Assembly (NCBI GenBank): GCA_045539335.1
Contig: JAZQFD010000029.1
Span: 65,420 to 129,419 of the forward strand
Direction of reading: 5' to 3'
DNA from: Eubacteriales bacterium
GTDB taxonomy: Bacteria > Bacillota > Clostridia > Oscillospirales > QAKW01
DNA length: 64,000 nucleotides
Position numbers and translations under genes: made by a program
The notes under the pieces: model-generated
Seen by the model: only the letters and a program-made list of their open reading frames with translations
Told to the model about the DNA's origin: nothing
The model's database searches: none
Shown here: piece by piece, positions 15,282 to 46,913 of the stretch
How positions within the stretch are numbered: position 1 is the first letter of the stretch
Layout of the letters: each line of letters starts with the position of its first letter

Positions 15282-15311
15282 GTTATTTACACTTTTTTAA
15301 TGAATTACATA

Positions 15312-15340
15312 TTCACAAAATGGAATTTATGTAGTATAAT
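15312..15340 (+). promoter_or_regulatory. Sigma-A-type promoter for the parvulin-like gene
   Basis: TTCACA, 17-nt spacer, TATAAT. It lies about 40 nt upstream of the ATG. Confidence 0.5.
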
Positions 15341-15378
15341 ATGAATATTGTAATTACGTTTTACGGAGGTACACCCCT

Positions 15379-16950: not shown

Positions 16951-16956
16951 CAAAAT

Positions 16957-16988
16957 AAAAATCCTTGAAACATGTTTCAAGGATTTTT
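16957..16988. terminator. Bidirectional terminator between convergent genes
   Basis: Perfect palindrome atccttgaaaca/tgtttcaaggat with A-rich sequence on the 5' side and T-rich sequence on the 3' side. Confidence 0.75.
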
Positions 16989-19541: not shown

Positions 19542-19564
19542 TAATTTTTGGAGGTATTCATAAG

Positions 19565-24817: not shown

Positions 24818-24835
24818 TCGATTCGTCAAGTTTAA

Positions 24836-24876
24836 CAAAAACACCGGTTGAATTTTTTATCAGCCGGTGTTTTTGT
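24836..24876 (+). terminator. Rho-independent terminator after pncB
   Basis: Stem acaccggttg, loop, stem cagccggtgt, then a T-run. Confidence 0.75.
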
Positions 24877-24970
24877 TAATGTTGCACATATGATTATGTA
24901 AACTTCATATTTTTGGCAAGTCATGACCTAGAAAAATTAACAATAAATTCGTAAATTTTTAAAAATATCA

Positions 24971-24999
24971 TTGAAATTATATATATTATATGTTATAAT
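24971..24999 (+). promoter_or_regulatory. Sigma-A promoter of the 12-kb ABC-like operon
   Basis: TTGAAA, 17-nt spacer, TATAAT, with a TGn extended -10. This leaves a leader of about 120 nt before the ATG at 25127. Confidence 0.55.
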
Positions 25000-25126
25000 T
25001 CATCCGATAGTATGGAGAATTGAGGCCAAAAGTGATTTGTGTATTTTGACTAAATTTAACTGTTCGAATTCACAAACATCTAAGTTTTACTTCTACGTAC
25101 GGATCAATCTATTCTGGAGGTAGTTT

Positions 25127-28100
25127 ATGAAAGACAAGAATGTTAGTTCTGTATTACGTTCTTTTCTTGCGGCATTGCTGGTTCTGACAATGGCGTTCAC
25201 CATGACCTTCAGCGTTTTTGCTGATGAAGAGGTTATTGATGACGCTACTGACAGTTCTGCTGCAGAAGATGTTACGTTGGATACAGACGCCCCTGTTAAC
25301 ACAGGCGCTTCCAAGCCTGCCGCAACAGTCACGCCTGAAGGTGGTTCCAACCAATCTTCGGTTTCTGTTGTTGGTTTCTATCGTGAGGGCAGATATGTAG
25401 ACTATTACGCCGAATATCAGGATTATGATAAAAAACTTCCTGAAATCGTAGTAGATGCCGATCTGTTTACCGCTGTAACAGCTCCTCATGAAATTGTTGC
25501 TTCCCATGAAGGTCGCACCAATGCCTTTGTTATGACGGATGTTGGTAGTGTTACATACACCATTACGGTTCAAGAAACCGGCATGTATGCCCTTAAACTT
25601 GACTATATGCCTTTGCTTGGCAATGGTAATGGCAAAAACTACGAGCTGTCGGTTATGATCGATGGTAAACTTCCGCACAACGATTCCGATCGTTTTGTTC
25701 TGAAGCGGAATTGGGCAGATGAGGATGAGGTTCGTCCTCAAGACTCTGCCGGCAACGATCTTTATTCGAAGCAGGTTGAGGAATCCAAATGGCTTTCCAA
25801 GGATGTGCGTGACCCCGACGGTGTATTTGATGATCCTGCTAAGTTTTATTTGACCGCAGGAACTCATACCGTTACCTTGAGCGTTGAAGCCGGCATTCTT
25901 GCTTTGGATATGATTCGTTTTTACAACGATGGCAAGACGATTAGCTACAATGACTACATCGAAATGCATGATGCAGAAGGTGCAACAGATGTCAACAATG
26001 CCTTCCAGCTTGAAATGGAGGATTATGACGATAAGAGCGAATCTTTGGTTCAGCCCGCATACGACCGTAGTGACCCGAAGGTAACTCCTTATAGCATCAG
26101 CAAAACTCGCATGAACGTTGTTGGCGGCGAGAACTGGAATACAAACGGTCAGTCTATTAACTGGACGATTGATGTTCCTGAGAGTGGATACTACACCATC
26201 GGTTTCCGTTATCGTCAGTCTTATGTGGAAGACTCGATCTCCTATCGTAAGATTTTGATTGACGGCAAGCTTCCTTTTGCTGAGGCAAGCCAGGTTGGCT
26301 TTATGTACGGAAGTGGCTTCCAGTACACGAAGGCCAGCGGTGTCGATGAAAACGGTAAAACCTTTGATTATAAGTTCTACTTAGAAGAGGGTACCCACTG
26401 TTTCACCATGGAGGCCGTCATTGGTCCTATGGCCAACGTTGGTCGTGTGGCTGAGGATATCGTTTATCAGCTTAACTATATCTATCGTAAGATTATTATT
26501 GTTACCGGTACCGAACCTGATACCTATCGTGACTATGAGCTGGAGAAGCGTGTTAATGGTCTGATGGATATGTTGAATTCTGTATATGAGAGCGTTAAGG
26601 GAATTCAGGAAGAAGTTATTGCAATCAACGGCTCTCTGGCTTCTGCTACAATCTTAACAACACTGCAGATGCAGCTTGAGGATTTTGTTGCCAAGCCTTA
26701 TGTAATTCCTGATCGTCTTTCCGTATTTAAGGATAACATCAGTTCTCTGAGTTCCTGGATGTTAGATTTACGCAATCAGCCTGTACAAATTGATAAGACA
26801 ATTTTCAATGGTACTGCAGCTAAAGAGGCTCGTCAAACCTCTAGTTTCTTGGAGGGTTTGGCTCATGAGATCCGTGCATTCTGGTCTTCCTTTGTAGATG
26901 ACTATACCACCGTTGGTTCTGCCAATGAAGATGGTCGTACTTTGACTGTTTGGGTTGGTACTGGTCGTGACCAGGCAATGGTTCTGAAAACTCTTTGCGA
27001 TAACTATTTCACCAAAGATACCGGAATCTCCGTTAATGTCTCTCTTGTACCTCTTTCTATACTTTCTAAAGCAATTGTTGCAAATCGTGGTCCTGATATC
27101 GCACTGCACGTATCTCGTTCTGAGCCTATGAACTTGGGTGTAAGAAATGCGGTATATGATATTAGTCAGTTTGAAGACTTTGATGAGGTTGCTACTCGTT
27201 TTACCAAGTATGCTTTGACTCCTTATACCTTGAGCACAACCGATTCCAATGGTAATGCAATTCAAAGGGTATTTGCTTTACCTGAGACCCAAAATTTCGA
27301 CATGTTGTTCTACCGTACGGATATCTTTGCTGAGTTGGGCATTCAGGTTCCCAACACCTGGGATGATCTTGATAACATCTTGCCTTATATTCAGGCAAAC
27401 AACATGACAGTTGGTTTGGACACCAACCTGGGCGGCGGTACGTTCTTCTCCTTGATTTTGCAAGGTGGTCACACTCCTTATAGAGAAGATGGTGCTGTTA
27501 CCAACTTTACCCAGCAATATGCGATCGACGCTTTTGAAAAGTGGACTCGCTACTATCTCCAATACGATCTTCCCACTGACTATAGCTGGTATAGCCGTTT
27601 CCGTAATGGTGAGATGCCTTTGGTAAGTACCAGTTATTCCAACATTACCTATCTGCAGGAGTCTGCTCCTGAGTTGAACGGTCTTTGGTCTGTGGCACCC
27701 ATTCCGGGTACTCTGGATCCCGATACCGGTCTTGTAAATCACGCCGAAGAATCCACTGGCATGAGTGGTGCGATGATCGTTTCTAAGACCATCAAGAGTG
27801 CTAAGAATCCCGAGCAGCAGCTAGAAGATGCTTGGACATTTATGAAGTGGTGGACGTCTGCTGAGATTGCCGGTGAATATGGTAACCGTATTGAGATGGC
27901 GATCGGCTCTGTTGCGAGATATACCACTGCAAACATTGAGGCTTTTGAAAAGATTAAGTGGACTACTGAAGAGGCTGCGATCATTAAAGAGCAGCGTCAG
28001 TGGATTCGTGAGAATCCCGAGTTGGTTGGTGGCTACTATGTGGGCCGTAACATTATTAATGCATTCCGTAATGTTACCAACAAACACACCAATCCTCGTG

Positions 28101-28195
28101 AAAAACTTATTTATTATAATGAACAGATTAATGATGAGATTTGGCGTAAGAGATCTGAATACAATCTTTCTGTTCCGGAGGAGGCGAATAAATAA
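25127..28195 (+). CDS. Giant secreted solute-binding protein: signal peptide + two CBM-like beta-sandwich modules + helical linker + family-1 extracellular SBP domain
   Basis: Signal peptide LLVLTMAFTMTFSVFA/DEE with no lipobox Cys. Duplicated modules (TYTITVQETGMYALKLDY...IDGKLP...FYLTAGTHTVTLS versus NWTIDVPESGYYTIGFRY...IDGKLP...FYLEEGTHCFTME). The C-terminal ~430 aa are SBP-like (LTVWVGTGRDQAMVLKTLCDNYFTKDTGISVNV...). Confidence 0.7.
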   Translation: MKDKNVSSVLRSFLAALLVLTMAFTMTFSVFADEEVIDDATDSSAAEDVTLDTDAPVNTGASKPAATVTPEGGSNQSSVSVVGFYREGRYVDYYAEYQDYDKKLPEIVVDADLFTAVTAPHEIVASHEGRTNAFVMTDVGSVTYTITVQETGMYALKLDYMPLLGNGNGKNYELSVMIDGKLPHNDSDRFVLKRNWADEDEVRPQDSAGNDLYSKQVEESKWLSKDVRDPDGVFDDPAKFYLTAGTHTVTLSVEAGILALDMIRFYNDGKTISYNDYIEMHDAEGATDVNNAFQLEMEDYDDKSESLVQPAYDRSDPKVTPYSISKTRMNVVGGENWNTNGQSINWTIDVPESGYYTIGFRYRQSYVEDSISYRKILIDGKLPFAEASQVGFMYGSGFQYTKASGVDENGKTFDYKFYLEEGTHCFTMEAVIGPMANVGRVAEDIVYQLNYIYRKIIIVTGTEPDTYRDYELEKRVNGLMDMLNSVYESVKGIQEEVIAINGSLASATILTTLQMQLEDFVAKPYVIPDRLSVFKDNISSLSSWMLDLRNQPVQIDKTIFNGTAAKEARQTSSFLEGLAHEIRAFWSSFVDDYTTVGSANEDGRTLTVWVGTGRDQAMVLKTLCDNYFTKDTGISVNVSLVPLSILSKAIVANRGPDIALHVSRSEPMNLGVRNAVYDISQFEDFDEVATRFTKYALTPYTLSTTDSNGNAIQRVFALPETQNFDMLFYRTDIFAELGIQVPNTWDDLDNILPYIQANNMTVGLDTNLGGGTFFSLILQGGHTPYREDGAVTNFTQQYAIDAFEKWTRYYLQYDLPTDYSWYSRFRNGEMPLVSTSYSNITYLQESAPELNGLWSVAPIPGTLDPDTGLVNHAEESTGMSGAMIVSKTIKSAKNPEQQLEDAWTFMKWWTSAEIAGEYGNRIEMAIGSVARYTTANIEAFEKIKWTTEEAAIIKEQRQWIRENPELVGGYYVGRNIINAFRNVTNKHTNPREKLIYYNEQINDEIWRKRSEYNLSVPEEANK

Positions 28196-29154
28196 TGGCT
28201 AAAGCAAAACAAAATGATCTTGATTTGCTGAAGAAGAAAAAGTTAACATTTTCTGAAAAAGTTCGCTTTACCTGGAGACAGGTGATTGATAACCGTGTTA
28301 ACTATTTCATGTTGACACCGTTTTTGGTTTTCTTCTTCCTGTTCACCGTGTTGCCGGTGTTGTCCTCCATGGTTCTGTCCTTTACACGCTATGATATTCT
28401 GAATAATCCTGTTTTCGTTGGATGGGATAACTACCTCAGAATGTTCTTGGAAGACGATGTATTTATGATTGCTTTGAAGAACACCCTTCAATTTGCAATT
28501 ATTACCGGTCCTGTCAGTTATTTGCTGTGCTTCGTATTTGCATGGTTCATTAACGATTTGCCTCCGGTTGCCAGAGCGTTCTTTACTGTGGTGTTCTATG
28601 CGCCCACTTTGGCAAACATCTACTTCATCTTCCAGTACTTATTTAGTAGTGATATGTATGGTCTTGCCAACTCGATCCTGATGAACCTTGGTTTGATGGA
28701 TGAACCGATTGCTTGGTTGACCAATACGGATTACATGCTCAACATCGTAATTATTGTTCAATTGTGGTGTTCTTTGGGTACCGGCTTCCTTTCTTTTGTT
28801 GCCGGTCTACAAAATTTGGATCCTTCCTTGGCCGAGGCCGGTGCCATCGATGGTGTCCGCAATCGTTTCCAAGAACTCTTCTATATCACCCTTCCTCAGA
28901 TGGGCGGTATGCTGATGTTCGGTGCGGTTATGCAGATTTCTTCTGCGTTCGCAGTGGGTGGTATTTCCTCCGCCTTGCTGGGTAACCCCTCTGTTGACTA
29001 TGCCGGTCACACTTTAGTTTTGCATATTGCAGACTTTGGTAATACACGTTTTGAACTTGGCTATGCTTCTGCCATCGCTGTATTCTTGTTTGCTTTGATG
29101 CTTATTACAAAAGCGGTCATTAATAAAATACTGGATCGCTTCTCAGATGATTAA
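28195..29154 (+). CDS. Sugar ABC transporter permease (MalF/LplB type), pair 1
   Basis: 6 TM segments. EAA-loop region LAEAGAIDGVRNRFQELFYITLPQM. 1-nt overlap with the SBP stop. Confidence 0.85.
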   Translation: MAKAKQNDLDLLKKKKLTFSEKVRFTWRQVIDNRVNYFMLTPFLVFFFLFTVLPVLSSMVLSFTRYDILNNPVFVGWDNYLRMFLEDDVFMIALKNTLQFAIITGPVSYLLCFVFAWFINDLPPVARAFFTVVFYAPTLANIYFIFQYLFSSDMYGLANSILMNLGLMDEPIAWLTNTDYMLNIVIIVQLWCSLGTGFLSFVAGLQNLDPSLAEAGAIDGVRNRFQELFYITLPQMGGMLMFGAVMQISSAFAVGGISSALLGNPSVDYAGHTLVLHIADFGNTRFELGYASAIAVFLFALMLITKAVINKILDRFSDD

Positions 29155-29174
29155 GGAAAGGAGAGTGAATTATT

Positions 29175-30032
29175 ATGTCAACTAAACTTAGAAGAACTAA
29201 AGTTTCCGTTGTCGGAGACATTACCACATATTTGTTACTCGCTCTCTATGCCAGCTTTATGGCGCTTCCTTTGGTTTATTCTGTTGCTCAGGCATTTAAA
29301 CCCTACAACGAATTGTTCATTTTCCCGCCTCGTTTTCTTCCGAAGAACCCGACCTTGATGAACTTCAAAAAGTTGTTTGATCTTACGTCAACCGCTTGGG
29401 TTCCGTTCTCAAGATACGTGTTTAACACTATTTTGAATACCGTTGTTGGTACTGTTATTCATATTTTGTCTGCAGCAATGGCTGCATACCCCTTGGCTAA
29501 AAACCGTTTCCCCGGAAAAAAAGGCATCAACAAGGTAATTGTTTGGTCGTTGCTTTTTGCCGGTGGCGTTACAGAGATTCCTGTATACTTGGTAATGTCC
29601 AAGTTGGGTATCATTGATACTTACTTTGCATTCTGGCTTCCTGAGCTTTCCGCTACCATGGGCGTTTTCTTGCTCCGTCAGAACATTGCTCAGCTTCCGA
29701 ATGCGGTGGTTGAAGCAGCTCGAATCGACGGGGCAGAGGAGTGGAAGATTCTTTGGTCGATCATCATGCCGGCTGTTAAGCCCGCTTGGCTGACCTTGGC
29801 AATTTTCTCATTCCAACGTAACTGGAATGCTACCGCTACTTCCTATATTTATACAGAGACTCTCAAAACTCTTCCTTCTGCACTTAGCCAGATTACCGCT
29901 GCCGGTAGTGTTGCTCGTGCAGGTGAGGCTTATGCAGCGTCGATTTTGTTGATGATCCCTCCGATTATCTTCTTTATCTTAGCTCAGAGTAGTACTGTAA
30001 AGACAATGGCTCACGCCGGTATTAAGGGTTAA
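29175..30032 (+). CDS. Carbohydrate ABC transporter permease (MalG/LplC type), pair 1
   Basis: EAA loop VVEAARIDGAEEWKILWSIIMPAVKP. 6 TM segments. Confidence 0.85.
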   Translation: MSTKLRRTKVSVVGDITTYLLLALYASFMALPLVYSVAQAFKPYNELFIFPPRFLPKNPTLMNFKKLFDLTSTAWVPFSRYVFNTILNTVVGTVIHILSAAMAAYPLAKNRFPGKKGINKVIVWSLLFAGGVTEIPVYLVMSKLGIIDTYFAFWLPELSATMGVFLLRQNIAQLPNAVVEAARIDGAEEWKILWSIIMPAVKPAWLTLAIFSFQRNWNATATSYIYTETLKTLPSALSQITAAGSVARAGEAYAASILLMIPPIIFFILAQSSTVKTMAHAGIKG

Positions 30033-30047
30033 GGAGGTGTATGTTAA

Positions 30048-31604
30048 GTGATGAAACAAAAGTTTATTAAAGTTTTGACTGTTGTGATGATTGCTTTGGT
30101 GCTTTCATCAATGACGGCAATCGTTGCTTCTGCATATACCCCTTACAATTCCTATAATTATAATTACTATGGCGAAGCAATTGAAACCCCCGCTTGTTAT
30201 GCTCCTGAAGCTGTTTATGGCGGAACAGATCTTGGAATTGGCGCACTTGGCAAGGTAGTGGATCTTTATGTCAGTCCTCAAAACGAAGTGTATTTGCTGG
30301 AATACCACGGCGCTGATGGTTTGGTTCGTATTCATATCTTTGACGAGAATATGAAGCTCGTTAAAACGCTTAGTTCCTATACTGCAAACGGTCAACCCTA
30401 TAACTTGTTCTTATCTGAAAGCTTGGTTGTTGACGATGAAGGCTACATTTATGTATGCGATACCGGTAACAATCAGATTGTTAAAATGGATCGTAATGGC
30501 GTGATTGTTCAGACGGTTGGCGCTCCCAATTCTGATATGTTTGAGGGTGCGTTTAATCCCCTGAGAATTGCAATCGCCAAGAATGGTTCTCTGTATGTTA
30601 TCAGCAGAAGCACCTTGGATGGTATCATGGAATTTAATCCTCAAGGAACCTTCCTTCGTTACTTTGGTGCTCCTAACGTTAAGATGAGCGTTTCTGACAT
30701 GGTTGCATTGGCATGGAGAAGAGTTTACCGCTCTTTGTTTGGTCAAGGCGTTGACGAATCTTTCGTAACCTTCGTACCCACCGAATTTACGAATTTGGTT
30801 GTTGATGAATACGGTTTCGTATTTGCAGTAGTTGCTGCCGCCGAAGACAATAGTGAACAGCTCTTCAAGATGAACTTCTTGGGTAACAACATTTTGGATC
30901 CTACAGCAAAGAGCACCAAGAAAGTCAGCGACTCTTTGTCTAAGACTTATGGTGACTTGGTTCGTCGTGCTACAGTTGGTACCGGAAACACCTTTACTGA
31001 TGTAGCTGTGGACGATGAGGGCTTTTTCACCATGATGGACTATAACCTCGGAAAACTCTTCGAGTATGATTCCGAAGGAAATCTGGTATCAGTTTATGGT
31101 GGTAAGGGCTATCAGCATGGTATGCTGCAGAAGCCCAAGGCAATCGCAAAACTCGGCGATAAGACTCTGATTTTGGATGAGTATTATCAAACAATCACCG
31201 CCTATGATTTGACCGATTATGGCGAGACCTTCCACGAAGCGATTGTTCTGTACAATAAGGGTAAATATGATGAGGCTGAAGACCAGTGGATCGAAGTTCT
31301 CAAGAGTAATGCCAACTGTGAAATGGGTCACATCGGCTTGGGTAAGGTCTCTTATCAGCATGGTGATTATGCAAAAGCATTGTTCCACTTTGAAATTGCA
31401 AACGATCGTATGAACTATGAGAGTTCTTATTCTCTTTATAGAGAGCAGTTAATCGCTGATAACTTCGGTACTGTCATGACTCTGTTGGTTGTTTTGATTA
31501 TCTTGGCCTTTGTATGGCGCTTGTTTGGTAAAAACATTATTAACGCTATTAAAGAAAGAAGACAAGGAGGTGGAAATGATGACGATGCAGAATTTATGGA
31601 GTAA
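30048..31604 (+). CDS. Secreted NHL-like beta-propeller + TPR protein with a C-terminal TM anchor
   Basis: Signal peptide. Repeated blade-like motifs (YIYVCDTGNNQIVKMDRNG, GSLYVISRSTLDGIMEFNPQG, FFTMMDYNLGKLFEYDSEGN). TPR-like YNKGKYDEAEDQW...QHGDYAKALFHFE. TM segment TVMTLLVVLIILAFVW near the C-terminus. Confidence 0.6.
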   Translation: MMKQKFIKVLTVVMIALVLSSMTAIVASAYTPYNSYNYNYYGEAIETPACYAPEAVYGGTDLGIGALGKVVDLYVSPQNEVYLLEYHGADGLVRIHIFDENMKLVKTLSSYTANGQPYNLFLSESLVVDDEGYIYVCDTGNNQIVKMDRNGVIVQTVGAPNSDMFEGAFNPLRIAIAKNGSLYVISRSTLDGIMEFNPQGTFLRYFGAPNVKMSVSDMVALAWRRVYRSLFGQGVDESFVTFVPTEFTNLVVDEYGFVFAVVAAAEDNSEQLFKMNFLGNNILDPTAKSTKKVSDSLSKTYGDLVRRATVGTGNTFTDVAVDDEGFFTMMDYNLGKLFEYDSEGNLVSVYGGKGYQHGMLQKPKAIAKLGDKTLILDEYYQTITAYDLTDYGETFHEAIVLYNKGKYDEAEDQWIEVLKSNANCEMGHIGLGKVSYQHGDYAKALFHFEIANDRMNYESSYSLYREQLIADNFGTVMTLLVVLIILAFVWRLFGKNIINAIKERRQGGGNDDDAEFME

Positions 31605-32262
31605 TCTTTATACATTCTGGAAAAAACTGAGTAATCGGCTGTTCGTTGGCAAAAAGAATCCCTTTTTAATGCTGGCACATCCCGCTGAAACAATGGAAGA
31701 TTTAAAGCAAAAGAAGAACGGCTCCGTTGTTTATGCCACCTTGCTGTTGCTTGCATATTCCGTTGCGGCCGTTATTAAGGCTGTTGCTACCGGTTTTTTG
31801 TATTCCTCTGCAAGAACTGAAGATTTTAACATCATTTCCGTTCTTTCTTCCTCCAGTGTATTGGTTGTTTTATTTGTTGTTGCCAACTGGGCACTGTGTA
31901 CATTGCTGAATGGTGAGGGTCGCATGGTGGACATTTATGTTATGACCTGCTATAACCTAACTCCGCTGATTATCGGTGACCTTGTTTCTACCTTTTTCTC
32001 CGGTTTCTTACTTCCGGATGAGTATGTGTTTGTGAATATCTTTGCCACCTGTATGAGTCTTTGGTTTGTAGTCTTGATGATTTACGGGGTTATGACCATT
32101 CACAATTATTCACTTTGGGGAACTCTTTTGAATCTGATTATTTCCCTTGTTGCAATGGCAGTAATCTTTTTCTTGATTTTCTTGTTTGTTGTTCTTGTTC
32201 AGCAGCTGTATGTGTTTATCTTTACGATTTTCACAGAATGCCGCATTCGGTTCTTGAGTTAA
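31576..32262 (+). CDS. Yip1-family integral membrane protein
   Basis: Start MMTMQNLW follows a GGAGGTG RBS and overlaps the upstream gene by 29 nt. Soluble N-terminus followed by 5 TM segments, the typical Yip1 topology. Confidence 0.6.
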   Translation: MMTMQNLWSNLYTFWKKLSNRLFVGKKNPFLMLAHPAETMEDLKQKKNGSVVYATLLLLAYSVAAVIKAVATGFLYSSARTEDFNIISVLSSSSVLVVLFVVANWALCTLLNGEGRMVDIYVMTCYNLTPLIIGDLVSTFFSGFLLPDEYVFVNIFATCMSLWFVVLMIYGVMTIHNYSLWGTLLNLIISLVAMAVIFFLIFLFVVLVQQLYVFIFTIFTECRIRFLS

Positions 32263-32281
32263 GAGGGGAGGAGTGATTATA

Positions 32282-34513
32282 ATGAAAAGATTTATTTCGA
32301 TTGTTGTAACGATTGTAACCCTTCTTTCTTGCATTGTTGTGGCAATTCCTGCCGCAGCAGCGCCTGCTCCTGAGCGTTTGGATGTTGAGGGCAACTATGT
32401 TCTGGTTGATCAAAACGATAAGTTGGCTCTTTATTTGGATTATGCGACCGGTATGTTTGGTGTAATGAATTTGAAAACCGGTACCGTTTGGTATTCCAAT
32501 CCTATTGATCGTAAAAACGATCAGGTGGCAACCGGCGACACAAAAACAGAGTTAAATACCCTGATTGCTGTTAAATACCTGACCGCCAACTACGAGCAGC
32601 TTACAAAGAATTCCAGCTTTGCCTCTTTTGTTACAGAGTATAACGGTGATGATGTTATTCTCTCCTTCTACTTCAACGAGGTAAACACCAAATTTATCAT
32701 TCCCATCAAATTGTCTTTGGAAGAAGATTATTTGAGAGTGGAATTGATGCTTGACCACATTAAAGAACTTGGCTCTTCTAAAGTGCTTGACGTTTCTTTG
32801 CTGCAGTTTTTTGGTGCTGCCGGCTTGAATGATACAGGCTATGCACTTTTGACCGATGGTTCCGGCTCTTTGATGGAGTTCAATATTGATGGTCAGCATT
32901 CCTATGAGTTTGGTGCAAGCAATGAAGGTACCTTCTATGCTGAAAACCCCACCGAGACTGCCAATCAGTCATACTATACTAACTGGAATGAACCTTTCCG
33001 GCTTCCTGTCCTTGGCATGGTTAAAAATGGCGAGGCATATGTTAACATCGTCGAAAGTGGTGCTGCTGTTACTGAGGCGCATGCTTATGTGAGTCGCTTC
33101 AAGAATAGCTACAATACCATTTATAACTCCGTTAACGTTCGTGATACTCAGAGCCGTATCAGTTCTGCCGGTAAGTCCGGTAAAGGCTTCTACTATACAG
33201 ATGAGCTTCCCGAGAACTATATTGCTCGCTACTATTTCTTGGATGGTGAAGATGCTGACTATGTTGGCATGGCCGAAAAGTACAGAGAGTATCTGATTAA
33301 TGAAAAGAAGATGGCCCCCATTAGCGAGAGTGTTGCCAACACTTTGTGTATTTCTCTTTATGGTGCCGTTAAGAAGTCCATGCATTTTCTTGGCATTCCT
33401 TATACCGGCGTTGAAGCATTGACCACCTTTTCTGAAGCAGAAGAATTGGTTAATCAGCTTCAGGCCGATCAGGTAAATAAGGTATTTCTGAATTATCTGG
33501 GTTGGAATGATGGTGGACTTGAGTCTACCCTCGAAACCGACTTTAGCATTGAATCCAAGCTTGGTAGTAAGAAAACTGTAAACAGTCTGATCAATACTGT
33601 TAATAACATTGAGAACTATCACCTTGCTTTTGACATGGATCTTCAGGCTTTTTACAAAGAGAATTCTGATGTTAAGAAATTCAAGAACAGTGCGTATGGT
33701 TTGAATTCTTCTCCCGTTACGCTGTTTAGATCTAGAATTTCTGCAGCTGGCGCTTTGGATAAGTCTTCGATCAGCCATCAGTTGATCAATCCTTTGGATA
33801 TGCCTGTATTTGCCAATGAGTTTGTTGGTGTTGCAACCAAGAGAAATGTGAACAGTTTCTCCTTTGGTTCTATCGGTGAAACTCTGTATTGCGCTTACAA
33901 CGCCGAGAAACTGGTTACTCGTGATAAGGCTGCTGCTTTGATGACCGATGTATTTACCTCTACTAAGGAAGTAATCGGAGACAAGGGAATCGTTAACACC
34001 AATGGTGGTAATGCTTATGCAACCCCTTATGTCGATAACGTTCTAAATGCTCCCGTTTATGGAAGCCACAACAACATTGCAAAGCAGGAAGTACCTTTCT
34101 ATCAGATCGTATTCCGTGGCTATGTTAACCTCGCAAGTAATCCTGTTAACTTGGATTCTGAGAAAGATGATCTGATTCTCAAGATTGCTGAAAGCGGAAT
34201 GAGTCTCTACTATCTTTTGATGGATGCAGATTCCACCTCTTTCCAAGGTACATCTTTCTCCGGCTCCTTCGCTTGCGCTCTTGATGATCATTATGAAGAA
34301 ATGATCGCCAATTATAATCGTTTGAAACCCCTTTATGATGCTATTGGTACCAGCTCGATTTCTGATTTTGAAATCGTTTCCAAGGACGTTCGCATCACTA
34401 CTTATAGCAATGGCGCTAAGGTGTATGTGAACTATGGGGATGCTGATGTTACAATCAATAATGTATTGATTAAGGCTGATGACTTTACTGTAGTAGGAGG
34501 TGCGAATTCATGA
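32282..34513 (+). CDS. Large secreted/anchored protein of unknown function (DUF5696-like from memory; possible distant glycoside-hydrolase fold)
   Basis: N-terminal signal/anchor FISIVVTIVTLLSCIVVAIPAAAAP. About 740 aa with no motif I can assign. The segment VFLNYLGWNDGGLES suggests a TIM-barrel-like core, but this is weak. Confidence 0.5.
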   Translation: MKRFISIVVTIVTLLSCIVVAIPAAAAPAPERLDVEGNYVLVDQNDKLALYLDYATGMFGVMNLKTGTVWYSNPIDRKNDQVATGDTKTELNTLIAVKYLTANYEQLTKNSSFASFVTEYNGDDVILSFYFNEVNTKFIIPIKLSLEEDYLRVELMLDHIKELGSSKVLDVSLLQFFGAAGLNDTGYALLTDGSGSLMEFNIDGQHSYEFGASNEGTFYAENPTETANQSYYTNWNEPFRLPVLGMVKNGEAYVNIVESGAAVTEAHAYVSRFKNSYNTIYNSVNVRDTQSRISSAGKSGKGFYYTDELPENYIARYYFLDGEDADYVGMAEKYREYLINEKKMAPISESVANTLCISLYGAVKKSMHFLGIPYTGVEALTTFSEAEELVNQLQADQVNKVFLNYLGWNDGGLESTLETDFSIESKLGSKKTVNSLINTVNNIENYHLAFDMDLQAFYKENSDVKKFKNSAYGLNSSPVTLFRSRISAAGALDKSSISHQLINPLDMPVFANEFVGVATKRNVNSFSFGSIGETLYCAYNAEKLVTRDKAAALMTDVFTSTKEVIGDKGIVNTNGGNAYATPYVDNVLNAPVYGSHNNIAKQEVPFYQIVFRGYVNLASNPVNLDSEKDDLILKIAESGMSLYYLLMDADSTSFQGTSFSGSFACALDDHYEEMIANYNRLKPLYDAIGTSSISDFEIVSKDVRITTYSNGAKVYVNYGDADVTINNVLIKADDFTVVGGANS

Positions 34514-35859
34514 AAAAATCAAATAATGAATTGAATAATACTCCCGCAGTAGAGCTGGAAACTGTTGCCACTCCCGAAGTTGAAGTTGAAGCAACTGTTG
34601 CTGAGGTTGAGGTAATGGAACCTATCAATCCTAATGCGCAGGTGGCTGCTGATTTAACAAAGCAAAATGCAGAGCGTGCAAGAGAAATTGTTAAGGAGCG
34701 TTTAGCTAAAATGTCTCCTGAGCAAATCGAAGCTCTGCGTAATGCAAAATCTGCAAAAATTGCTGCGGAACAAGTCGAAGAAACTGAACCTGAAGTGCCT
34801 GCTGTTTCTCCTGAAGAAACAGAGGCTGTAAAGGCTCGTCTTTCTCAAATGACCTCTGAGCAGATTATTGCTGCCCAAGCTGCAAAAGCTGCCAAGGTTG
34901 CCGCTGCGGCTGCTGCAACAGCAGAGGCTACTTCTGCTGTTGCCCCTGCTAAGAAAGCAAAGAAGAAGCGGAGAGGTCCTCGGATTTCCTATGAATCCAA
35001 GCAAGCCTTTAGCGGTTTTATGTTTGTATTGCCGTGGTTTATTGGTTTCCTGCTGTTCTTTGCAGCACCTTGCTTGGAATCCCTGCAGTTCTCTTTCTCT
35101 AAGGTTGACCCGTATAATCAGTATGCCTGTACATGGACCGGCCTTGCTAACTATACCAAACTACTGACAAAAGAGCCGACCTTTATGCAGGCGTTGACCG
35201 ATACCCTTACGGATTTGCTGGTAAACGTTCCTGTTGTATTGATTTTCAGTTTGTTTGTAGCTGTTCTGCTGAATCGTAAATTCCCCGGTCGTGGCTTGGT
35301 GCGTGGAATCTTCTTCCTGCCGGTTATTGTTACCACCGGTGTTGTAATGTCTACTTTCAGCTCCAGTGACTCTGAGGCTGCATTTAGCGGTACCATGAAC
35401 AGAGGTATTCTTTTCCAGATGACCGACGCCAGAGACTTTTTGGTTGATCTTGGTTTGAATGAAACGATTACTCAGTACATGTCTGACGTTGCCGACCGCA
35501 TCTTTGATGTGGTATGGGATTCCGGTGTACAGATCCTCTTGTTCTTGGCTGCTTTGCAGGGTATTTCTCCGCAGCTTTATGAAGCAAGTAGCGTTGAGGG
35601 TGCTACTGCATGGGAGACCTTCTGGTTGATTACATTCCCCAATGTGGCTCCTATCATTCTGGTTAACATCGTTTATACTATCGTTGATACCTACAACGAT
35701 CCTGAAAACCTTGTTTTGGCTCAGATTGAAACTTATACAGGTGTTACCTTTAACTTTGGTGGTGCAGCCGCCATTTCCTGGACATTCTTTACGGTCGTTT
35801 TGCTGTTGCTGGGCGTTGTCTTCGGTGTATATGCATTCCTGACCAGAAAATCTCGTTAA
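34510..35859 (+). CDS. Sugar ABC transporter permease (MalF type), pair 2, with a ~155-aa Ala/Glu/Lys-rich N-terminal extension
   Basis: ATGA overlap with the upstream gene. The extension carries a tandem repeat. The core has 6 TM segments and the EAA loop LYEASSVEGATAWETFWLITFPNV. Confidence 0.8.
   Translation: MKKSNNELNNTPAVELETVATPEVEVEATVAEVEVMEPINPNAQVAADLTKQNAERAREIVKERLAKMSPEQIEALRNAKSAKIAAEQVEETEPEVPAVSPEETEAVKARLSQMTSEQIIAAQAAKAAKVAAAAAATAEATSAVAPAKKAKKKRRGPRISYESKQAFSGFMFVLPWFIGFLLFFAAPCLESLQFSFSKVDPYNQYACTWTGLANYTKLLTKEPTFMQALTDTLTDLLVNVPVVLIFSLFVAVLLNRKFPGRGLVRGIFFLPVIVTTGVVMSTFSSSDSEAAFSGTMNRGILFQMTDARDFLVDLGLNETITQYMSDVADRIFDVVWDSGVQILLFLAALQGISPQLYEASSVEGATAWETFWLITFPNVAPIILVNIVYTIVDTYNDPENLVLAQIETYTGVTFNFGGAAAISWTFFTVVLLLLGVVFGVYAFLTRKSR
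34690..34911 (+). repeat. In-frame tandem repeat within the permease N-terminal extension
   Basis: VKERLAKMSPEQIEALRNAKSAKIAAEQ (34690-34773) and VKARLSQMTSEQIIAAQAAKAAKVAAAA (34828-34911) match at roughly half of their positions. Confidence 0.7.
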
Positions 35860-35876
35860 GAAAGGAGGCTACAAAT

Positions 35877-36872
35877 ATGAGAATTATTAAAGCGTTTAAA
35901 CATCAATTCGGTAGTGAACGCAAAAATGCTGATAAACGCATGTGGGCTTATATTGCCACCAAGTTTATTGGAAATGTTGCAGTTGCTTTGATTTTGATTG
36001 GTTTGTCTTATATCATTTTGTATCCTCTGATCTTCAGTTTGGCTCAGGCTATTCGTACCAGCCAGGATATGTATGATACGACTATTGTTTACATCCCCAA
36101 ACATTTCACCCTGGAGAACTTTCCTAAGGCGTGGACGGGTTTGAATTTCCCTGTTGCTTTTGCAAATACCTTTAACATTGCAATTTGGCCCACCATTTTG
36201 CAGGTTTGTATTTGTGCACTGGCAGGTTATGGTCTTGCAAGATTTAAGTTCAAGGGCAAGGGTCTTTTGTTCTTCTTTGTGTTGCTGACCATCATTATTC
36301 CTCCCTCTACCATTATGATTTCTCAGTACACCAGCTTCCGTTTCTTTGATCCTTTATATCTGGCTTCGGCAGTACATTCCTTTGGCTGGATTGAGGAACC
36401 CTATTTTGACCTTACCGACTCTCTTTGGAGCTTTATTTTGCCCGCCGCTTTTGGTAGTGGTTTGAAGAGTGGTTTGTTCATCTTCGTTTATCGTCAGTTC
36501 TTCAGCGGATTCCCCAAGGAATTGGAAGAAGCAGCTTATATTGATGGTTGCGGTGCTATGAAAACATTCTTGAGAATTCTGGTTCCTAATATGGGTCCTG
36601 CATTTACTACTGTTTTCATGTTCTGTATCACTTGGTATTGGAATGATTATTATACCGTTCCCATGTTCTTGCCGAACACCGATACTTTGCCCAGTGTACT
36701 GGATGGATTGTTCAAATCCTTGCAGAGCATCTTTGTCGGCACTGACTCTTTGACCTTGTACCCTGTGTTGCGTGCCGGTATTTTGATTTATATCGCACCC
36801 CTCTTGTTGACATTCATTCTCTTCCAGAGAAAGTTGACAGAGTCCATTGCAAGAACCGGTATCGTAGGTTAA
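35877..36872 (+). CDS. Carbohydrate ABC transporter permease (MalG type), pair 2
   Basis: EAA loop LEEAAYIDGCGAMKTFLRILVPNM. 6 TM segments. AAGGAGG RBS. Confidence 0.85.
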   Translation: MRIIKAFKHQFGSERKNADKRMWAYIATKFIGNVAVALILIGLSYIILYPLIFSLAQAIRTSQDMYDTTIVYIPKHFTLENFPKAWTGLNFPVAFANTFNIAIWPTILQVCICALAGYGLARFKFKGKGLLFFFVLLTIIIPPSTIMISQYTSFRFFDPLYLASAVHSFGWIEEPYFDLTDSLWSFILPAAFGSGLKSGLFIFVYRQFFSGFPKELEEAAYIDGCGAMKTFLRILVPNMGPAFTTVFMFCITWYWNDYYTVPMFLPNTDTLPSVLDGLFKSLQSIFVGTDSLTLYPVLRAGILIYIAPLLLTFILFQRKLTESIARTGIVG

Positions 36873-36883
36873 TGCTATTAAAA

Positions 36884-36916
36884 GAGACAACGCTTTTGAG
36901 CGTTGTCTCTTTTTTT
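36884..36916 (+). terminator. Rho-independent terminator closing the ABC-like operon
   Basis: Stem gagacaacgc, loop ttttga, stem gcgttgtctc, then a T-run. Confidence 0.85.
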
Positions 36917-37079
36917 AAAAGTTCATGTGCTCAACAAAGTTTCCGACTGCCTTAATTGCATTACCGGCGGTTTTGGATACACACTTTTTAGGTTTGTTTT
37001 TTGCCACCAGCATGCTTGCGGTTGCGCCCAATGCCATGCCGGCAATTGCTGAAAACATGACTGCTTTTCCTTGCTTCAT
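36915..37079 (-). CDS. Small hypothetical protein, 54 aa (below the ORF-track cutoff)
   Basis: My translation is MKQGKAVMFSAIAGMALGATASMLVAKNKPKKCVSKTAGNAIKAVGNFVEHMNF. An AAGGGA RBS sits 7 nt upstream. One hydrophobic helix. The stop lies inside the bidirectional terminator tail. Confidence 0.35.
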   Translation of the reverse strand: MKQGKAVMFSAIAGMALGATASMLVAKNKPKKCVSKTAGNAIKAVGNFVEHMNF

Positions 37080-37204
37080 TTTATCATCCCTTTCTTTGAA
37101 CTAATATTAGTATGTCGATTGTTTGGTTAATTATTTACTTTTTCGATTAAATAAGTTATAATATTATATTATTGTGTTATTTTCGACTTTTTAACGAGGT
37201 TTAT

Positions 37205-39382: not shown

Positions 39383-39393
39383 GGTATATATTA

Positions 39394-40143: not shown

Positions 40144-40153
40144 GGAGCATACA

Positions 40154-45803: not shown

Positions 45804-46913
45804 ATGGCAAGTTTGTCATTAAAAGGCATTTACAAAAGATATCCCGGTGGTGTTGTTGCAGTTTCCGATTTCAATCTGGAAATTGAAGACAAAGAGTTTT
45901 TGGTTCTTGTTGGTCCTTCCGGTTGTGGTAAATCTACCACTTTGAGAATGATCGCCGGTCTGGAAGAAATCACTGAAGGTGAACTGTTCATTGGTGACAA
46001 ACTTGTTAATGACGTTGCTCCCAAGGATAGAGACATCGCAATGGTGTTCCAGAACTACGCTCTGTATCCTCATATGACCTGTTTTGATAACATGGCATTT
46101 GGTCTGAAGCTTAGAAAGACCCCCAAGGACGAGATCAAGAGACGTGTAGAAGAGGCCGCTAAGATCCTCGACATCAGCCACTTGCTCGACAGAAAGCCTA
46201 AGGCTTTGTCCGGTGGTCAGCGTCAGCGTGTTGCTTTGGGTCGTGCAATCGTTCGTGAACCTAAAGTATTCTTGCTCGATGAGCCTTTGTCCAACTTGGA
46301 TGCTAAGCTTCGTGCTCAGATGAGAACCGAGCTTTCTAAGATTCACCACAATTTGAAAACCACCTTTATTTATGTAACCCATGACCAGACTGAGGCTATG
46401 ACCATGGCTACCAGAATCGTTGTTATGAAAGACGGTTTGATTCAGCAGGTTGATACTCCTCAAAATCTGTATCTCTATCCCTGCAATGTTTTCGTTGCCG
46501 GCTTTATCGGATCTCCCCAGATGAACTTTGTTAAGGTTCAGTTGGTTGAAAAGGCTGATGGTTACTACATCGAGTTTGCTGACAATTCCTTGAAGCTGCC
46601 CGAAAACAAGATTAACGATGCAGTAAAAGAAAAGGTTGGTCAGAATTTGATCCTCGGTATTCGTCCTGAGCATGTTCATGACGAGGAAGAGCATCTGAAG
46701 AATTTGCCCGGTTATATCGTTACTGCTAACGTTGAAGTCGCTGAGAAGATGGGTTCTGAGACTTATCTGTATCTGGACGTTGAGGGTAGCAAGTACACCG
46801 CTCGTGTATCTCCTAAGTCTACCGCCGTTGCAGATGATGTAATTAAAGTTGCTTTGGATCTCGAGTATTGCCATCTCTTTGATGCGGAAACCGAACAAAC
46901 CTTAGTGAACTAA
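45804..46913 (+). CDS. MsmX/UgpC/MalK-type sugar ABC transporter ATP-binding protein (orphan, no adjacent permease)
   Basis: Walker A GPSGCGKST, Q-loop, signature LSGGQRQRV, Walker B FLLDEPLSNLD, and a C-terminal TOBE-like regulatory domain. Confidence 0.9.
   Translation: MASLSLKGIYKRYPGGVVAVSDFNLEIEDKEFLVLVGPSGCGKSTTLRMIAGLEEITEGELFIGDKLVNDVAPKDRDIAMVFQNYALYPHMTCFDNMAFGLKLRKTPKDEIKRRVEEAAKILDISHLLDRKPKALSGGQRQRVALGRAIVREPKVFLLDEPLSNLDAKLRAQMRTELSKIHHNLKTTFIYVTHDQTEAMTMATRIVVMKDGLIQQVDTPQNLYLYPCNVFVAGFIGSPQMNFVKVQLVEKADGYYIEFADNSLKLPENKINDAVKEKVGQNLILGIRPEHVHDEEEHLKNLPGYIVTANVEVAEKMGSETYLYLDVEGSKYTARVSPKSTAVADDVIKVALDLEYCHLFDAETEQTLVN

Follow-up and report, generated by a model that had tools for sequence, protein, structure and literature searches.

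The window analyzed here is a 64-kb stretch of DNA (64,000 nucleotides) that carries, at positions 25127-36872, a block of eight co-directional open reading frames on the plus strand (ORF calls). Neighboring genes overlap by 1 nt at 28195, by 29 nt at 31576/31604 and through an ATGA at 34510, gaps of 15-20 nt separate the remaining genes, and a GGAGG-type ribosome-binding site precedes each of the eight. Pfam recovered from the block SBP_bac_8 with a weak CBM_35 match, four BPD_transp_1 domains, NHL with TPR, Yip1, and DUF5696. The eight genes, their three overlaps, a promoter-like site and a terminator had been proposed by an earlier sequence-only reading of this DNA; all were confirmed from the sequence, and its domain assignments by Pfam.

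Upstream of the block lies a sigma-70-type promoter-like site (24971..24999, plus strand) consisting of TTGAAA, a 17-nt spacer and TATAAT with an extended TG, followed by a putative 5' untranslated leader of about 127 nt (25000..25126, plus strand; read from the sequence). What had been called a strong promoter is the top site of a 14-kb scan (24000-38000), with 11/12 matches, but promoter-like sites across that region occur at chance level (32 observed versus 30.6 expected), so that the promoter is plausible and statistically unproven. Rfam families gave zero matches across the whole window, the leader included. The block ends at an intrinsic terminator (36880..36916, plus strand, start approximate) formed by a 15-bp hairpin and a U-run (folding energy -22.6 kcal/mol, z = -6.4), which is possibly bidirectional and common to the operon and a convergent 54-aa ORF. 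According to Pfam, neither the block nor its immediate flanks contain an ATPase, a recognizable glycoside hydrolase or, as had been claimed, a regulator. The operon of this clade is surrounded by housekeeping genes, without glycoside hydrolases or regulators, in a vertically inherited neighborhood where NAPRTase lies upstream and a P-type ATPase downstream. The layout supports the view that the block is one operon-like unit.

Receptor, permeases and a candidate ATPase

The first gene (25127..28195, plus strand) encodes a giant substrate-binding protein (SBP) of 1022 aa that is predicted to be membrane-tethered, as judged from Pfam, an AF2 model (pLDDT 84.8, pTM 0.79), Foldseek and a PDB profile search. 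From N to C terminus it comprises a signal/anchor helix, a disordered linker, two CBM6/35-like beta-sandwiches, a four-helix bundle and a CUT1 oligosaccharide-binding domain. In this clade the signal peptide looks cleavable (VFA-DE) and is without a lipobox. Homologues (n=259) span 920-1046 aa, and the SBP domain is conserved to the same degree as the rest of the protein. The solved structures nearest to it are without exception oligosaccharide SBPs, the closest by Foldseek and PDB profile being the beta-1,2-glucooligosaccharide-binding protein Lin1841 (E 1e-29), and the model indicates that the C-terminal domain is a genuine oligosaccharide-binding fold.

The four permeases, assigned by Pfam and motif, form two pairs on the plus strand. 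Permease 1F (28195..29154; MalF/UgpA-type, EAA loop EAGAIDG), with six predicted TM segments, begins on the 1-nt overlap with the SBP stop codon and is followed by permease 1G (29175..30032; MalG/UgpE-type, EAARIDG). The second pair consists of permease 2F (34510..35859), a divergent MalF-type protein with EAA loop EASSVEG whose gene shares the ATGA overlap with the DUF5696 gene, and the MalG-type permease 2G (35877..36872; EAAYIDG). Permease 2F carries a clade-specific, cytoplasmic N-terminal extension of about 160 aa that is rich in Ala, Glu and Lys. The block encodes two complete MalF/MalG-type translocators, with the ATPase-docking EAA loop kept in all four subunits; across the four families the motif is present in 53/53, 62/62, 48/56 and 57/62 members.

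The lack of an ATPase, to which the sequence-only reading had drawn attention, holds for the block itself but is ordinary for CUT1 sugar importers of the Bacillota, which use a common multitask MsmX/MsmK ATPase (PMC7658222). An orphan MalK/UgpC/MsmK-type ABC ATPase with MalK OB and TOBE domains is encoded outside the operon, 9 kb downstream (45804..46913, plus strand; Pfam; NCBIfam matches UgpC 3e-146 and MalK 3e-133). By analogy, it is a candidate energizer in trans.

NHL-TPR and Yip1 proteins

Between the permease pairs, the NHL/TPR gene (30048 or 30051..31604, plus strand; Pfam, profile search, TM prediction) encodes a signal peptide, a six-bladed NHL beta-propeller, TPR repeats, a C-terminal TM anchor (residues 476-494) and a short cytoplasmic tail. 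Its profile hits consensus TPR proteins and NHL propellers, among the latter the sensor domain of PknD. The next gene, overlapping it by the 29 nt given above, encodes a Yip1-family membrane protein with five TM segments (31576..32262, plus strand; Pfam E 6.6e-17). In nine loci (L042, L052, L055, L058, L059, L060, L063, L066 and L067) the two occur as a single-gene NHL-Yip1 fusion, and a gene of L071 likewise bears both Pfam domains. The two are fused in at least nine lineages, and in this block the Yip1 gene encodes the NHL-TPR protein's split partner.

The similarity of the propeller to the extracellular sensor domain of PknD would suit a sensory transceptor, in which the propeller, the giant SBP and a pseudo-glycosidase (the DUF5696 protein) detect a glycan of the envelope or the environment while the permeases chiefly signal rather than feed. 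The housekeeping context of the clade's operon, devoid of catabolic genes, and the long cytoplasmic extension on permease 2F are also consistent with such a device. We nevertheless consider it improbable: Pfam detects no kinase, response regulator, GGDEF or DNA-binding domain in or beside the cassette in this clade, other lineages encode their regulators separately, as ordinary AraC/His-kinase or LacI genes, and the EAA loops and SBP folds are typical of working importers.

A GH129-like protein without the canonical catalytic pair

The DUF5696 gene (32282..34513, plus strand; Pfam E 2.5e-141) encodes 743 aa from its ATG, identical in sequence to the database protein P0001, and the product is probably a surface-tethered lipoprotein, its LLSC lipobox including Cys17. 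Its AF2 model (pLDDT 88.4) retrieved ZgGH129 (E 1e-31) and NagBb (E 3e-29) by Foldseek, hhalign aligned the family with ZgGH129-like proteins at 99.2% probability, and those proteins themselves score as Pfam DUF5696. The GH129 nucleophile Asp (Zg D486) aligns with N524, and the acid/base Glu with N574. By alignment and residue conservation, neither catalytic position is kept as an acid across the cassette family. Fold and profile mark it as a clear GH129 homologue, which by its aligned residues lacks the canonical catalytic pair. The block had been said to hold no recognizable glycoside hydrolase, a statement that stands at the level of Pfam names only.

The protein could still have enzymatic activity through non-canonical residues, since the pocket-side loop PDGSGS is strongly conserved and D192 is found in 91% of DUF5696 sequences. 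It would then act as an extracellular glycosidase or transglycosylase through residues such as D192 (in an N-domain loop), D451/D453 or E627, trimming glycans held on the CBM-like modules of the giant SBP, with two products entering via the two translocators. The GH129 homology spans the full length of the protein, the top conserved motifs, including the PDGSGS loop and D192, surround the predicted pocket, the protein is surface-tethered, and the Caldicellulosiruptor bescii counterpart carries a GH129 annotation and is induced together with xylanases (PMC8579813). We regard this reading as unlikely, because the nucleophile position is N/S/G/A in 19/19 diverse members examined, the acid/base position varies within the clade, nothing corresponds to the third acid (KIQD) that ZgGH129-like proteins conserve, and no barrel acid is conserved in at least 90% of the family. 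Moreover, DUF5696 stays constant while flanking glycoside hydrolase repertoires differ, so that a structural role fits better than that of a substrate-specific enzyme.

Conservation of the cassette

A synteny survey seeded with DUF5696 yielded 68 loci, 44 of which hold the complete, ordered eight-gene set; the others are broken by contig ends, with L044 and L062 as partial exceptions. Seeding independently with the SBP recovered the same cassette in 4/4 loci. The neighborhood check that the sequence-only reading had proposed thus found the gene order recurring across genera, and its statement that similar gene sets occur elsewhere was correct. Hosts include Clostridia, Paenibacillus and Treponema. 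Overlapping junctions recur as well, in 35/47 loci for SBP/permease 1F, 49/50 for NHL/Yip1 (fusions counted) and 43/53 for DUF5696/permease 2F.

More distant cassettes, in Paenibacillus, Treponema, Mobilitalea and others, bear a ninth gene for an ordinary lipoprotein SBP that is missing from this clade; the claim of one receptor is accordingly valid for this clade only. Their flanks are rich in hemicellulases (GH10, GH43, GH3, GH39, GH31, GH127, GH26, GH5, GH130 and GH36), and elsewhere flanks are mixed, with xylan, mannan, rhamnosidase and GH2 functions and even recA/SMC. The flanks turn over completely and the cassette remains intact. It appears to be a widely conserved, barely studied sugar-uptake machine.

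Either half of the block resembles a normal CUT1 module, and the annotation of C. bescii has two separate transporters, Xlo and Axo, as would be expected if two independent, ordinary ABC sugar importers had come to lie around three unrelated envelope genes. Such a chance juxtaposition is very improbable, because the co-conservation of NHL, Yip1 and DUF5696 with the two permease pairs is strict across genera and in two phyla. The eight-gene order persists in several Bacillota classes and in Spirochaetota, with either seed, at protein identities ranging from 81% to about 22%, junctions are translationally coupled, and the cassette survives wholly changed flanks.

Discussion

We propose, with a probability of roughly 0.6, that the block is a single operon for a conserved tandem CUT1-type carbohydrate ABC import cassette of the xloEFG-NHL-GH129-axoFGE type, serving hemicellulose-type oligosaccharides and equipped with accessory subunits that are conserved and non-catalytic. 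The giant receptor would capture oligosaccharides and deliver them to permease pair 1. For the accessory proteins, we infer that the NHL-TPR and Yip1 proteins might form an assembly scaffold that keeps the parts together. The GH129-like protein, whose gene is translationally coupled to that of permease 2F, could serve as a partner of pair 2 by binding glycans or by acting in a non-canonical way. Power for both translocators may come in trans from the MsmK-type ATPase at 45804. The second, ordinary SBP of other lineages was presumably lost in this clade; pair 2 would therefore be served by the giant SBP, the GH129-like protein or an SBP encoded elsewhere. The likeliest substrate would be hemicellulose-derived, for example xylo- or arabinoxylo-oligosaccharides. 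This is a guess, since the clade's operon sits amid housekeeping genes without a glycoside hydrolase or regulator, and since flanks elsewhere vary although the SBP domain is conserved like the rest of the protein.

It had also been suggested that the locus might be an envelope machine unrelated to nutrient import; such a machine might assemble or export a cell-surface glycan. Its strong, constitutive-looking promoter, its vertically inherited housekeeping neighborhood and three envelope proteins of unknown role would be compatible with this. To our knowledge, every studied system that joins SBPs to EAA-loop type I permeases is an importer. The EAA loop in all four permeases and the bona fide oligosaccharide-binding SBP domain point to import and make the envelope machine highly implausible, as do the absence of glycosyltransferase, flippase and polymerase from the cassette (Pfam), and its occurrence elsewhere within glycan-degradation loci, including xylan induction in C. 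bescii (PMC8579813).

The closest known counterpart to the proposed import cassette is the xylan degradation locus (XDL) of Caldicellulosiruptor (Anaerocellum) bescii, xloEFG-Athe_0177(NHL)-Athe_0178(GH129)-axoFGE (Athe_0174-0181; Csac_2419-2412), an operon induced on xylan and Avicel (PMC8579813). By published annotation and gene order, it shares the SBP, two CUT1 permeases, NHL-repeat protein, GH129-like protein and two further CUT1 permeases. The sequence-only reading knew of no functional study; the same architecture is in fact present in this xylan-induced, XynR-regulated locus, where XynR binding to the operator has been measured (PMC12285236), but the locus was published as two predicted transporters, Xlo and Axo, with the accessory genes left unanalyzed (PMC8579813, PMC12285236). 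It matches the nine-gene form, and its msmK is separate and co-induced. In contrast to the window, the C. bescii operon has a second SBP (AxoE) at its end, followed by xylanases and xylosidases under XynR/AraR, none of which occurs in the window, and its NHL gene is one ORF, presumably an NHL-Yip1 fusion, whereas NHL and Yip1 are split here.

Canonical Bacillota CUT1 importers such as B. subtilis AraNPQ-MsmX likewise combine an SBP_bac_1/8 receptor and MalF/MalG-type EAA permeases with an ATPase whose gene lies elsewhere and which several importers share (PMC7658222). The receptor in the window differs in being about 2.4x the usual size, with some 600 extra N-terminal residues, and in not being a lipoprotein, and the operon has two permease pairs with three conserved non-transporter envelope proteins embedded between them. 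The DUF5696 protein shares with GH129 (ZgGH129 3,6-anhydro-D-galactosidase, PDB 5OPQ/8RZK; NagBb alpha-N-acetylgalactosaminidase, 5WZN) and the related GH101 an N-terminal beta-sandwich, a (beta/alpha)8 barrel and a C-terminal beta-sandwich, but at about 13% identity, and it is always encoded within the transporter cassette rather than a catabolic enzyme set.

YknW, a Yip1-family protein, is an assembly factor of the Bacillus ABC transporter YknWXYZ (PMC4887032); it too is a membrane protein encoded beside an ABC transporter complex, whose assembly it modulates. The comparison goes no further than analogy: YknYZ belongs to the MacB-type exporters and has a membrane-fusion protein, whereas the window encodes type I importers, and in the cassette an NHL-TPR ectodomain is coupled to the Yip1 domain or fused with it. 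In the heteromeric amino-acid transporters SLC3/SLC7 (4F2hc or rBAT with LAT-type permeases), a glycosidase-fold ectodomain (GH13-like, dead in 4F2hc) is an obligatory, ancillary transporter subunit. These systems are eukaryotic, belong to another glycosidase fold family and transporter class and are not homologous, and so are a precedent only for a pseudo-glycosidase as a subunit. Finally, Sus-like polysaccharide utilization loci of the Bacteroidota also co-encode surface glycan-binding and glycosidase-fold proteins with a transporter, coupling surface capture to import; they do so with TonB-dependent SusC/SusD genes, which the cassette lacks, whereas the cassette uses ABC importers, in hosts that are mostly Bacillota.

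Results

Operon structure and surroundings

We found eight co-directional open reading frames at 25127-36872, in agreement with the coordinates proposed in the sequence-only reading, and Pfam returned all of the domains it had assigned. The overlaps it had described were borne out as well: 1 nt at 28195, 29 nt between the end of the NHL gene (31604) and the ATG of the Yip1 gene (31576), and an ATGA at 34510. The remaining intergenic gaps within the operon measure 15-20 nt, and a GGAGG-type ribosome-binding site lies 5' of every start. For the NHL protein, ATG 30051 is the likelier start; for Yip1 it is ATG 31576, rather than an upstream TTG, and for DUF5696 ATG 32282. From the latter, the product has 743 aa and is identical to the database protein P0001; an exact-sequence lookup of the window DUF5696 protein returned no record.

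A promoter-like site at 24971-24999 matches 11 of 12 positions, has an extended TG and is the top scorer in the region scanned, where such sites as a class are not commoner than in shuffled sequence. The terminator consists of a 15-bp hairpin and a U-run (-22.6 kcal/mol, z = -6.4 by folding) and was missed by a simple scanner because the flanking A and U runs pair. An Rfam search of the whole window gave no family match, hence no known riboswitch in the 127-nt leader. A Pfam-type domain search of the operon surroundings agreed with the earlier claim that the operon has no regulator and found neither a regulator nor a glycoside hydrolase in the flanks (nicotinate phosphoribosyltransferase, NAPRTase, and P-type ATPase); a missing regulator is an ordinary feature. 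On the minus strand, a convergent 54-aa ORF (MKQGKAVMFSAIAGMALGATASMLVAKNKPKKCVSKTAGNAIKAVGNFVEHMNF, 36919-37083) with one hydrophobic segment ends at the operon terminator hairpin, which, given this arrangement, may stop transcription in both directions.

Further downstream, a SpoU methyltransferase gene (39379-40143) has a long membrane-protein ORF on either side (37172-39382 and 40127-42169). For the first of these ORFs, which is syntenic with the cassette in close relatives, the match to E1-E2 ATPase is only partial, and neither a hydrolase nor a HAD domain was reported; the second (680 aa) has a multi-TM look and no Pfam or NCBIfam match. Both may be degenerate or divergent P-type ATPase-like proteins. 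Context genes at 7796-15246 and 48188-52148 mark the chromosome of an anaerobic member of the Clostridia, one set comprising an electron-bifurcating-type [FeFe] hydrogenase (HydA-like, NuoF-like) and a second FtsE/FtsX, a PcsB-like M23 peptidase and a tail-specific protease. Within the 64 kb, we found no other sugar-utilisation genes than those of the NagB-like isomerase/lactonase and phosphoglucomutase/phosphomannomutase families (18828-20974).

Conservation of the cassette

A 44-sequence DUF5696 alignment (A1) contained no conserved peptide usable as a locus seed. A scan of one genome per GTDB species with a seed from a closer alignment (A2) yielded 68 loci, in which gene presence was determined by tblastn with all eight window proteins and, as permease paralogues cross-hit, read from per-locus maps. 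The complete order of genes 1 to 8 is present in 44 of these loci. The others are interrupted by a contig end, except for two partial exceptions: in L044, two ordinary SBP genes (1843-4521) replace the giant SBP and the first permease pair within the 4.7 kb available upstream, and in L062 tblastn detected no second MalG-type gene, the place of which is occupied by a 1330-aa ORF (13038-17030). A search with the giant SBP gave 259 homologues of 920-1046 aa, and when this protein served as a second seed, four of four distant contigs carried SBP, permease, permease, NHL, Yip1, DUF5696, permease and permease genes. The gene-neighbourhood check left over from the sequence-only reading thus shows the eight-gene order recurring with two independent seeds, and with both of them the NHL, Yip1 and DUF5696 genes are co-conserved with the permeases. 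Chance juxtaposition of these genes, a poorly supported explanation of the locus, is ruled out by the synteny.

The closer hosts are uncultured gut Clostridia, with 81-40% identity; further ones, at 22-36% identity, include Oscillospiraceae, Acutalibacteraceae, Defluviitaleaceae, Ca. Darwinibacter, four Paenibacillus species and two Treponema MAGs. The flanks of the window are common only to closer relatives, with NAPRTase upstream in the close and mid groups and the P-type ATPase downstream in the close group. The NAPRTase gene (23366-24817) directly upstream of the cassette is found in nearly all relatives down to ~40% DUF5696 identity, a sign that in the window clade the cassette has been inherited vertically at one fixed place in the chromosome. 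Distant loci have entirely different flanks, rich in hemicellulases (GH families encountered include GH10, GH43, GH3, GH39, GH31, GH127, GH26+CBM35, GH5, GH130, GH36, GH78 and GH2) and regulators (AraC/histidine kinase, LacI), with housekeeping genes now and then. The DUF5696 family itself is large: at 50% identity it forms 4,100 clusters when E <= 1e-30 to the cassette profile is required, and 7,174 when the cut-off is E <= 1e-3. It is spread over human and ruminant gut Clostridia, Paenibacillus, termite Treponema and, by published annotation, the biofuel organism Anaerocellum bescii.

Permeases and the ATPase

All four permeases (BPD_transp_1) have six hydrophobic segments and an EAA loop (EAGAIDG, EAARIDG, EASSVEG and EAAYIDG), a motif that is conserved across loci. 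The combination of two MalF/MalG-type subunits with an EAA coupling loop, characteristic of CUT1 importers, is therefore present twice, and because of these features both pairs look like working type I importers dependent on a MalK-type ATPase. An exporter reading, itself poorly supported, was rejected, the permeases being of importer type and paired with SBPs. The sequence-only reading had pointed to the absence of an ATPase, and it is correct that Pfam detects no nucleotide-binding subunit inside the operon. This is not unusual, since it is normal in Bacillota for CUT1 importers to share a 'multitask' ATPase and sharing in trans is established (PMC7658222), and a candidate MalK/UgpC-type ATPase with OB_MalK and TOBE domains stands alone at 45804-46913. 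One locus, from a Defluviitaleaceae MAG (L064), has an MsmK-like ATPase gene (1947-3086) directly 5' of the giant SBP gene; its product is 46% identical to the window orphan ATPase, and it is the sole cassette-attached ATPase seen.

The giant SBP

The SBP domain of the giant SBP matches SBP_bac_8 in Pfam (E 2.4e-16), and its best PDB match in a profile search is Lin1841, a beta-1,2-glucooligosaccharide binder (E 1e-29). The structural model has good confidence (pLDDT 84.8, pTM 0.79). It predicts an N-terminal hydrophobic helix (residues 4-27), a disordered acidic linker (27-80), two beta-sandwiches (~100-267 and 290-431), a four-helix bundle (435-590) and a complete SBP fold (605-1022). In Foldseek, the full-length protein matched through its SBP domain only, with TM values of 0.7-0.8, up to 0.79, to oligosaccharide SBPs; the N-terminal 600 residues were without a match. 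We call the beta-sandwiches putatively CBM6/35-like on the basis of model topology and sub-threshold Pfam matches in 16 of 38 homologues, the matches seen in many homologues being CBM_35, CBM_6, Golvesin_C and GH115_C. Between lineages, conservation is about the same in all four domains (28-38% identity), which argues that the N-terminal modules are integral parts of the receptor and not decorations. The giant SBP is not a lipoprotein: its N-terminus has the look of an uncleaved anchor in Paenibacillus and Treponema and of a cleavable signal (VFA|DE) in the window clade.

The NHL-TPR and Yip1 proteins

The NHL-TPR protein comprises a signal peptide and a six-bladed NHL propeller, then about two TPR repeats and, after a TM helix, a short tail of charged residues. 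Its propeller profile hits the sensor domain of PknD as well as the 'Pizza' designs, which were derived from that domain; a pure sensor function for the cassette is poorly supported. The Yip1 protein matches PF04893 with E 6.6e-17 over 170 of 173 profile positions and has five hydrophobic segments, as expected of the family. In at least nine lineages, the two proteins are a single polypeptide in the order ectodomain, TM helix, short basic linker and five-TM Yip1 domain, and for one fused gene both Pfam domains are present in the database's own gene call. These fusions are direct Rosetta-stone evidence that the two window proteins would function as one unit. There is one studied precedent for a bacterial Yip1 protein as a transporter accessory: YknW modulates assembly of the YknXYZ ABC complex (PMC4887032).

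The DUF5696 protein is a GH129 homologue

The DUF5696 model is confident (pLDDT 88.4, pTM 0.89), and its top structural matches in Foldseek are the two solved GH129 enzymes, ZgGH129 (8RZK/5OPQ, E 1e-31) and NagBb (E 3e-29), with GH101, GH31 and GH36 ranking after them. The family profile also found ZgGH129 among PDB sequences (E 1.2e-9), and profile-profile comparison (hhalign) aligned the cassette family with ZgGH129-like proteins at 99.2% probability over 605 columns. ZgGH129 homologues fetched from the protein database themselves carry PF18952 (DUF5696). A separate profile of the C-terminal half of the barrel (A3) returned nanobody and MBP-fusion noise only from the PDB sequences. The protein thus has both the three-domain fold with a central (beta/alpha)8 barrel and the sequence homology that define GH129. 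The earlier statement that the locus has no recognisable glycoside hydrolase holds at the level of Pfam names only and fails at the level of homology.

In ZgGH129-like proteins, the nucleophile Asp of the ADITDI motif is invariant (D459 in the database protein P0102, equivalent to Zg D486, the residue mutated in PDB 8RZK, with a +27 offset fixed from the 5OPQ numbering). This residue is not retained in the cassette family: Zg D486 aligns to N524 of the window protein, and the column holds N, S, G, A or L and is never acidic in 19 diverse cassette proteins. The general acid/base Glu of the invariant GTE motif, 31 residues past the nucleophile, is not retained either. It aligns to N574 in a column with N, L, G, Q, A or T in the window clade and D or E in only a few distant members. 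In the alignment, the KIQD aspartate of ZgGH129-like proteins has no counterpart in the cassette family. Only one acid, D192, is conserved in at least 90% of the family; it sits in an N-domain loop (PDGSGS) whose aligned counterpart in GH129 is equally conserved.

Judging from sequence and model, a ligand pocket has probably been retained; the canonical retaining mechanism has not. The DUF5696 protein is either a pseudo-enzyme that binds glycans or an enzyme whose residues have been relocated. The latter is the main rival to our interpretation: an active enzyme using non-canonical residues would make the cassette a self-contained capture-cleave-import system. DUF5696 is invariant beside very different glycoside hydrolase repertoires, and this constancy while the neighbouring enzymes vary favours a structural or binding role.

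The protein is tethered, with a lipobox-like LLSC (Cys17) in the window and close relatives, clear lipoboxes in several distant relatives and a TM anchor in Paenibacillus. Longer forms, by 100-130 aa (847-875 versus 743 aa in the window), occur in L070, L071, L072, L049, L042, L061 and L067; the extra segment is apparently N-terminal, tblastn covering these proteins only from about residue 140.

Modules inside the cassette

Overlaps recur at three junctions, between the giant SBP and the first MalF-type gene (35 of 47 loci), NHL and Yip1 (49 of 50) and DUF5696 and the second MalF-type gene (43 of 53). All other cassette junctions are short gaps across lineages. This pattern suggests three translationally coupled modules: the giant SBP with pair 1, NHL with Yip1, and DUF5696 with pair 2. 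More distant cassettes usually have a ninth gene, either 3' of pair 2 or 5' of the giant SBP, for an ordinary lipoprotein SBP of 450-530 aa. We found this second SBP in at least 17 of the more distant loci; neither the window nor any of the 41 closer loci (L001-L041) has it. In these closer loci, the second MalF-type permease has instead acquired an N-terminal extension, which is ~160 aa long and of low complexity in the closest group; the mid group has a shorter one. Extension and absence of the second SBP thus coincide. In the window (34510-35000), the extension is cytoplasmic and rich in Ala, Glu and Lys, with an internal repeat (RLAKMSPEQIEALRNAKSAKIAAEQ / RLSQMTSEQIIAAQAAKAAKVAAA). This ~160-aa form is restricted to the closest clade, where the median permease length is 457 aa, compared with 348 aa for the mid group and 302 aa for distant loci.

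Discussion

Gram-positive bacteria that live in the gut or degrade biomass take up glycans mainly through sugar ABC importers, which are usually pictured as one binding protein, two permeases and a shared ATPase. In the cassette, this set is joined by three invariant envelope proteins and a second translocon. It constitutes one strictly co-inherited operon with two importer-type translocators and an ATPase available in trans. Its products include a genuine oligosaccharide receptor that carries additional modules, a GH129 homologue stripped of its catalytic residues and an NHL-TPR/Yip1 unit. There is nothing unusual in the lack of an ATPase and a regulator; what calls for explanation is the conserved trio of accessory proteins.

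We propose that the giant SBP feeds permease pair 1, that the GH129-like protein partners pair 2, and that NHL-TPR/Yip1 could act as a scaffold of the assembly. In the window clade, the giant SBP, the GH129-like protein or an SBP from an unlinked gene might serve pair 2. Taken furthest, this leads to a speculative model, to which we assign a probability of roughly 15%: the GH129-fold lipoprotein and NHL-TPR-Yip1 would be obligate structural subunits of a two-translocon ABC import supercomplex, with the pseudo-glycosidase as a non-SBP-fold receptor or gate of the second translocon. Such a role would explain how the window clade manages without a second SBP. If the supercomplex model is true, the cassette would be for Gram-positive bacteria what Sus-like surface capture machines are elsewhere, and would have its eukaryotic parallel in SLC3/SLC7. 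Should the accessory proteins prove to be structural subunits, textbook accounts of how Gram-positive bacteria import glycans are incomplete, and the explanation of a large 'DUF' family would be that a glycosidase became a subunit of a transporter.

Literature searches on DUF5696/PF18952, and on Yip1 with ABC permeases or Paenibacillus, gave nothing relevant, and only literature pairing 'GH129' with 'ABC transporter' led to Caldicellulosiruptor. In the C. bescii regulon reconstruction, the xylan degradation locus (XDL) begins with an operon xloEFG-X-GH129-axoFGE (Athe_0174-0181), orthologous to Csac_2419-2412. Its genes are all up-regulated on xylan and Avicel and are counted among the targets of XynR and AraR; msmK, encoded separately, is co-induced (PMC8579813). 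XynR binds to the XDL operator with a Kd of 161 nM (PMC12285236), and the genes in C. saccharolyticus respond to xylan-rich biomass (PMC5658599). By its architecture and published annotation, this operon would be the nine-gene form of the cassette. The authors of the reconstruction interpreted it as a pair of predicted transporters of xylo- and arabinoxylo-oligosaccharides and discussed neither the NHL and GH129 genes nor the size of XloE or wider conservation (PMC8579813). From the C. bescii induction data and our flank census, the substrates would belong to the class of hemicellulose-type oligosaccharides. A genetically tractable host with a known inducer, xylan, exists, and direct testing is possible.

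The literature searched describes neither the cross-phylum conservation, the NHL-Yip1 fusion and the loss of the GH129 catalytic pair nor the giant receptor architecture and the SBP-less variant of the window clade. A Sus-like PUL of the Bacteroidota type was rejected for want of SusC/SusD: neither the operon nor its flanks encode a TonB-dependent transporter or a SusD-like domain. With the XDL, the window shares the order SBP, F, G, NHL(-Yip1), GH129-like, F, G; it differs in having no second ordinary SBP beside pair 2 and no co-located xylanases or XynR/AraR operator, its flanks being NAPRTase and P-type ATPase. The window locus is a variant of the CUT1 sugar importers, and its cassette type appears once in the literature, where it was not recognised as a unit.
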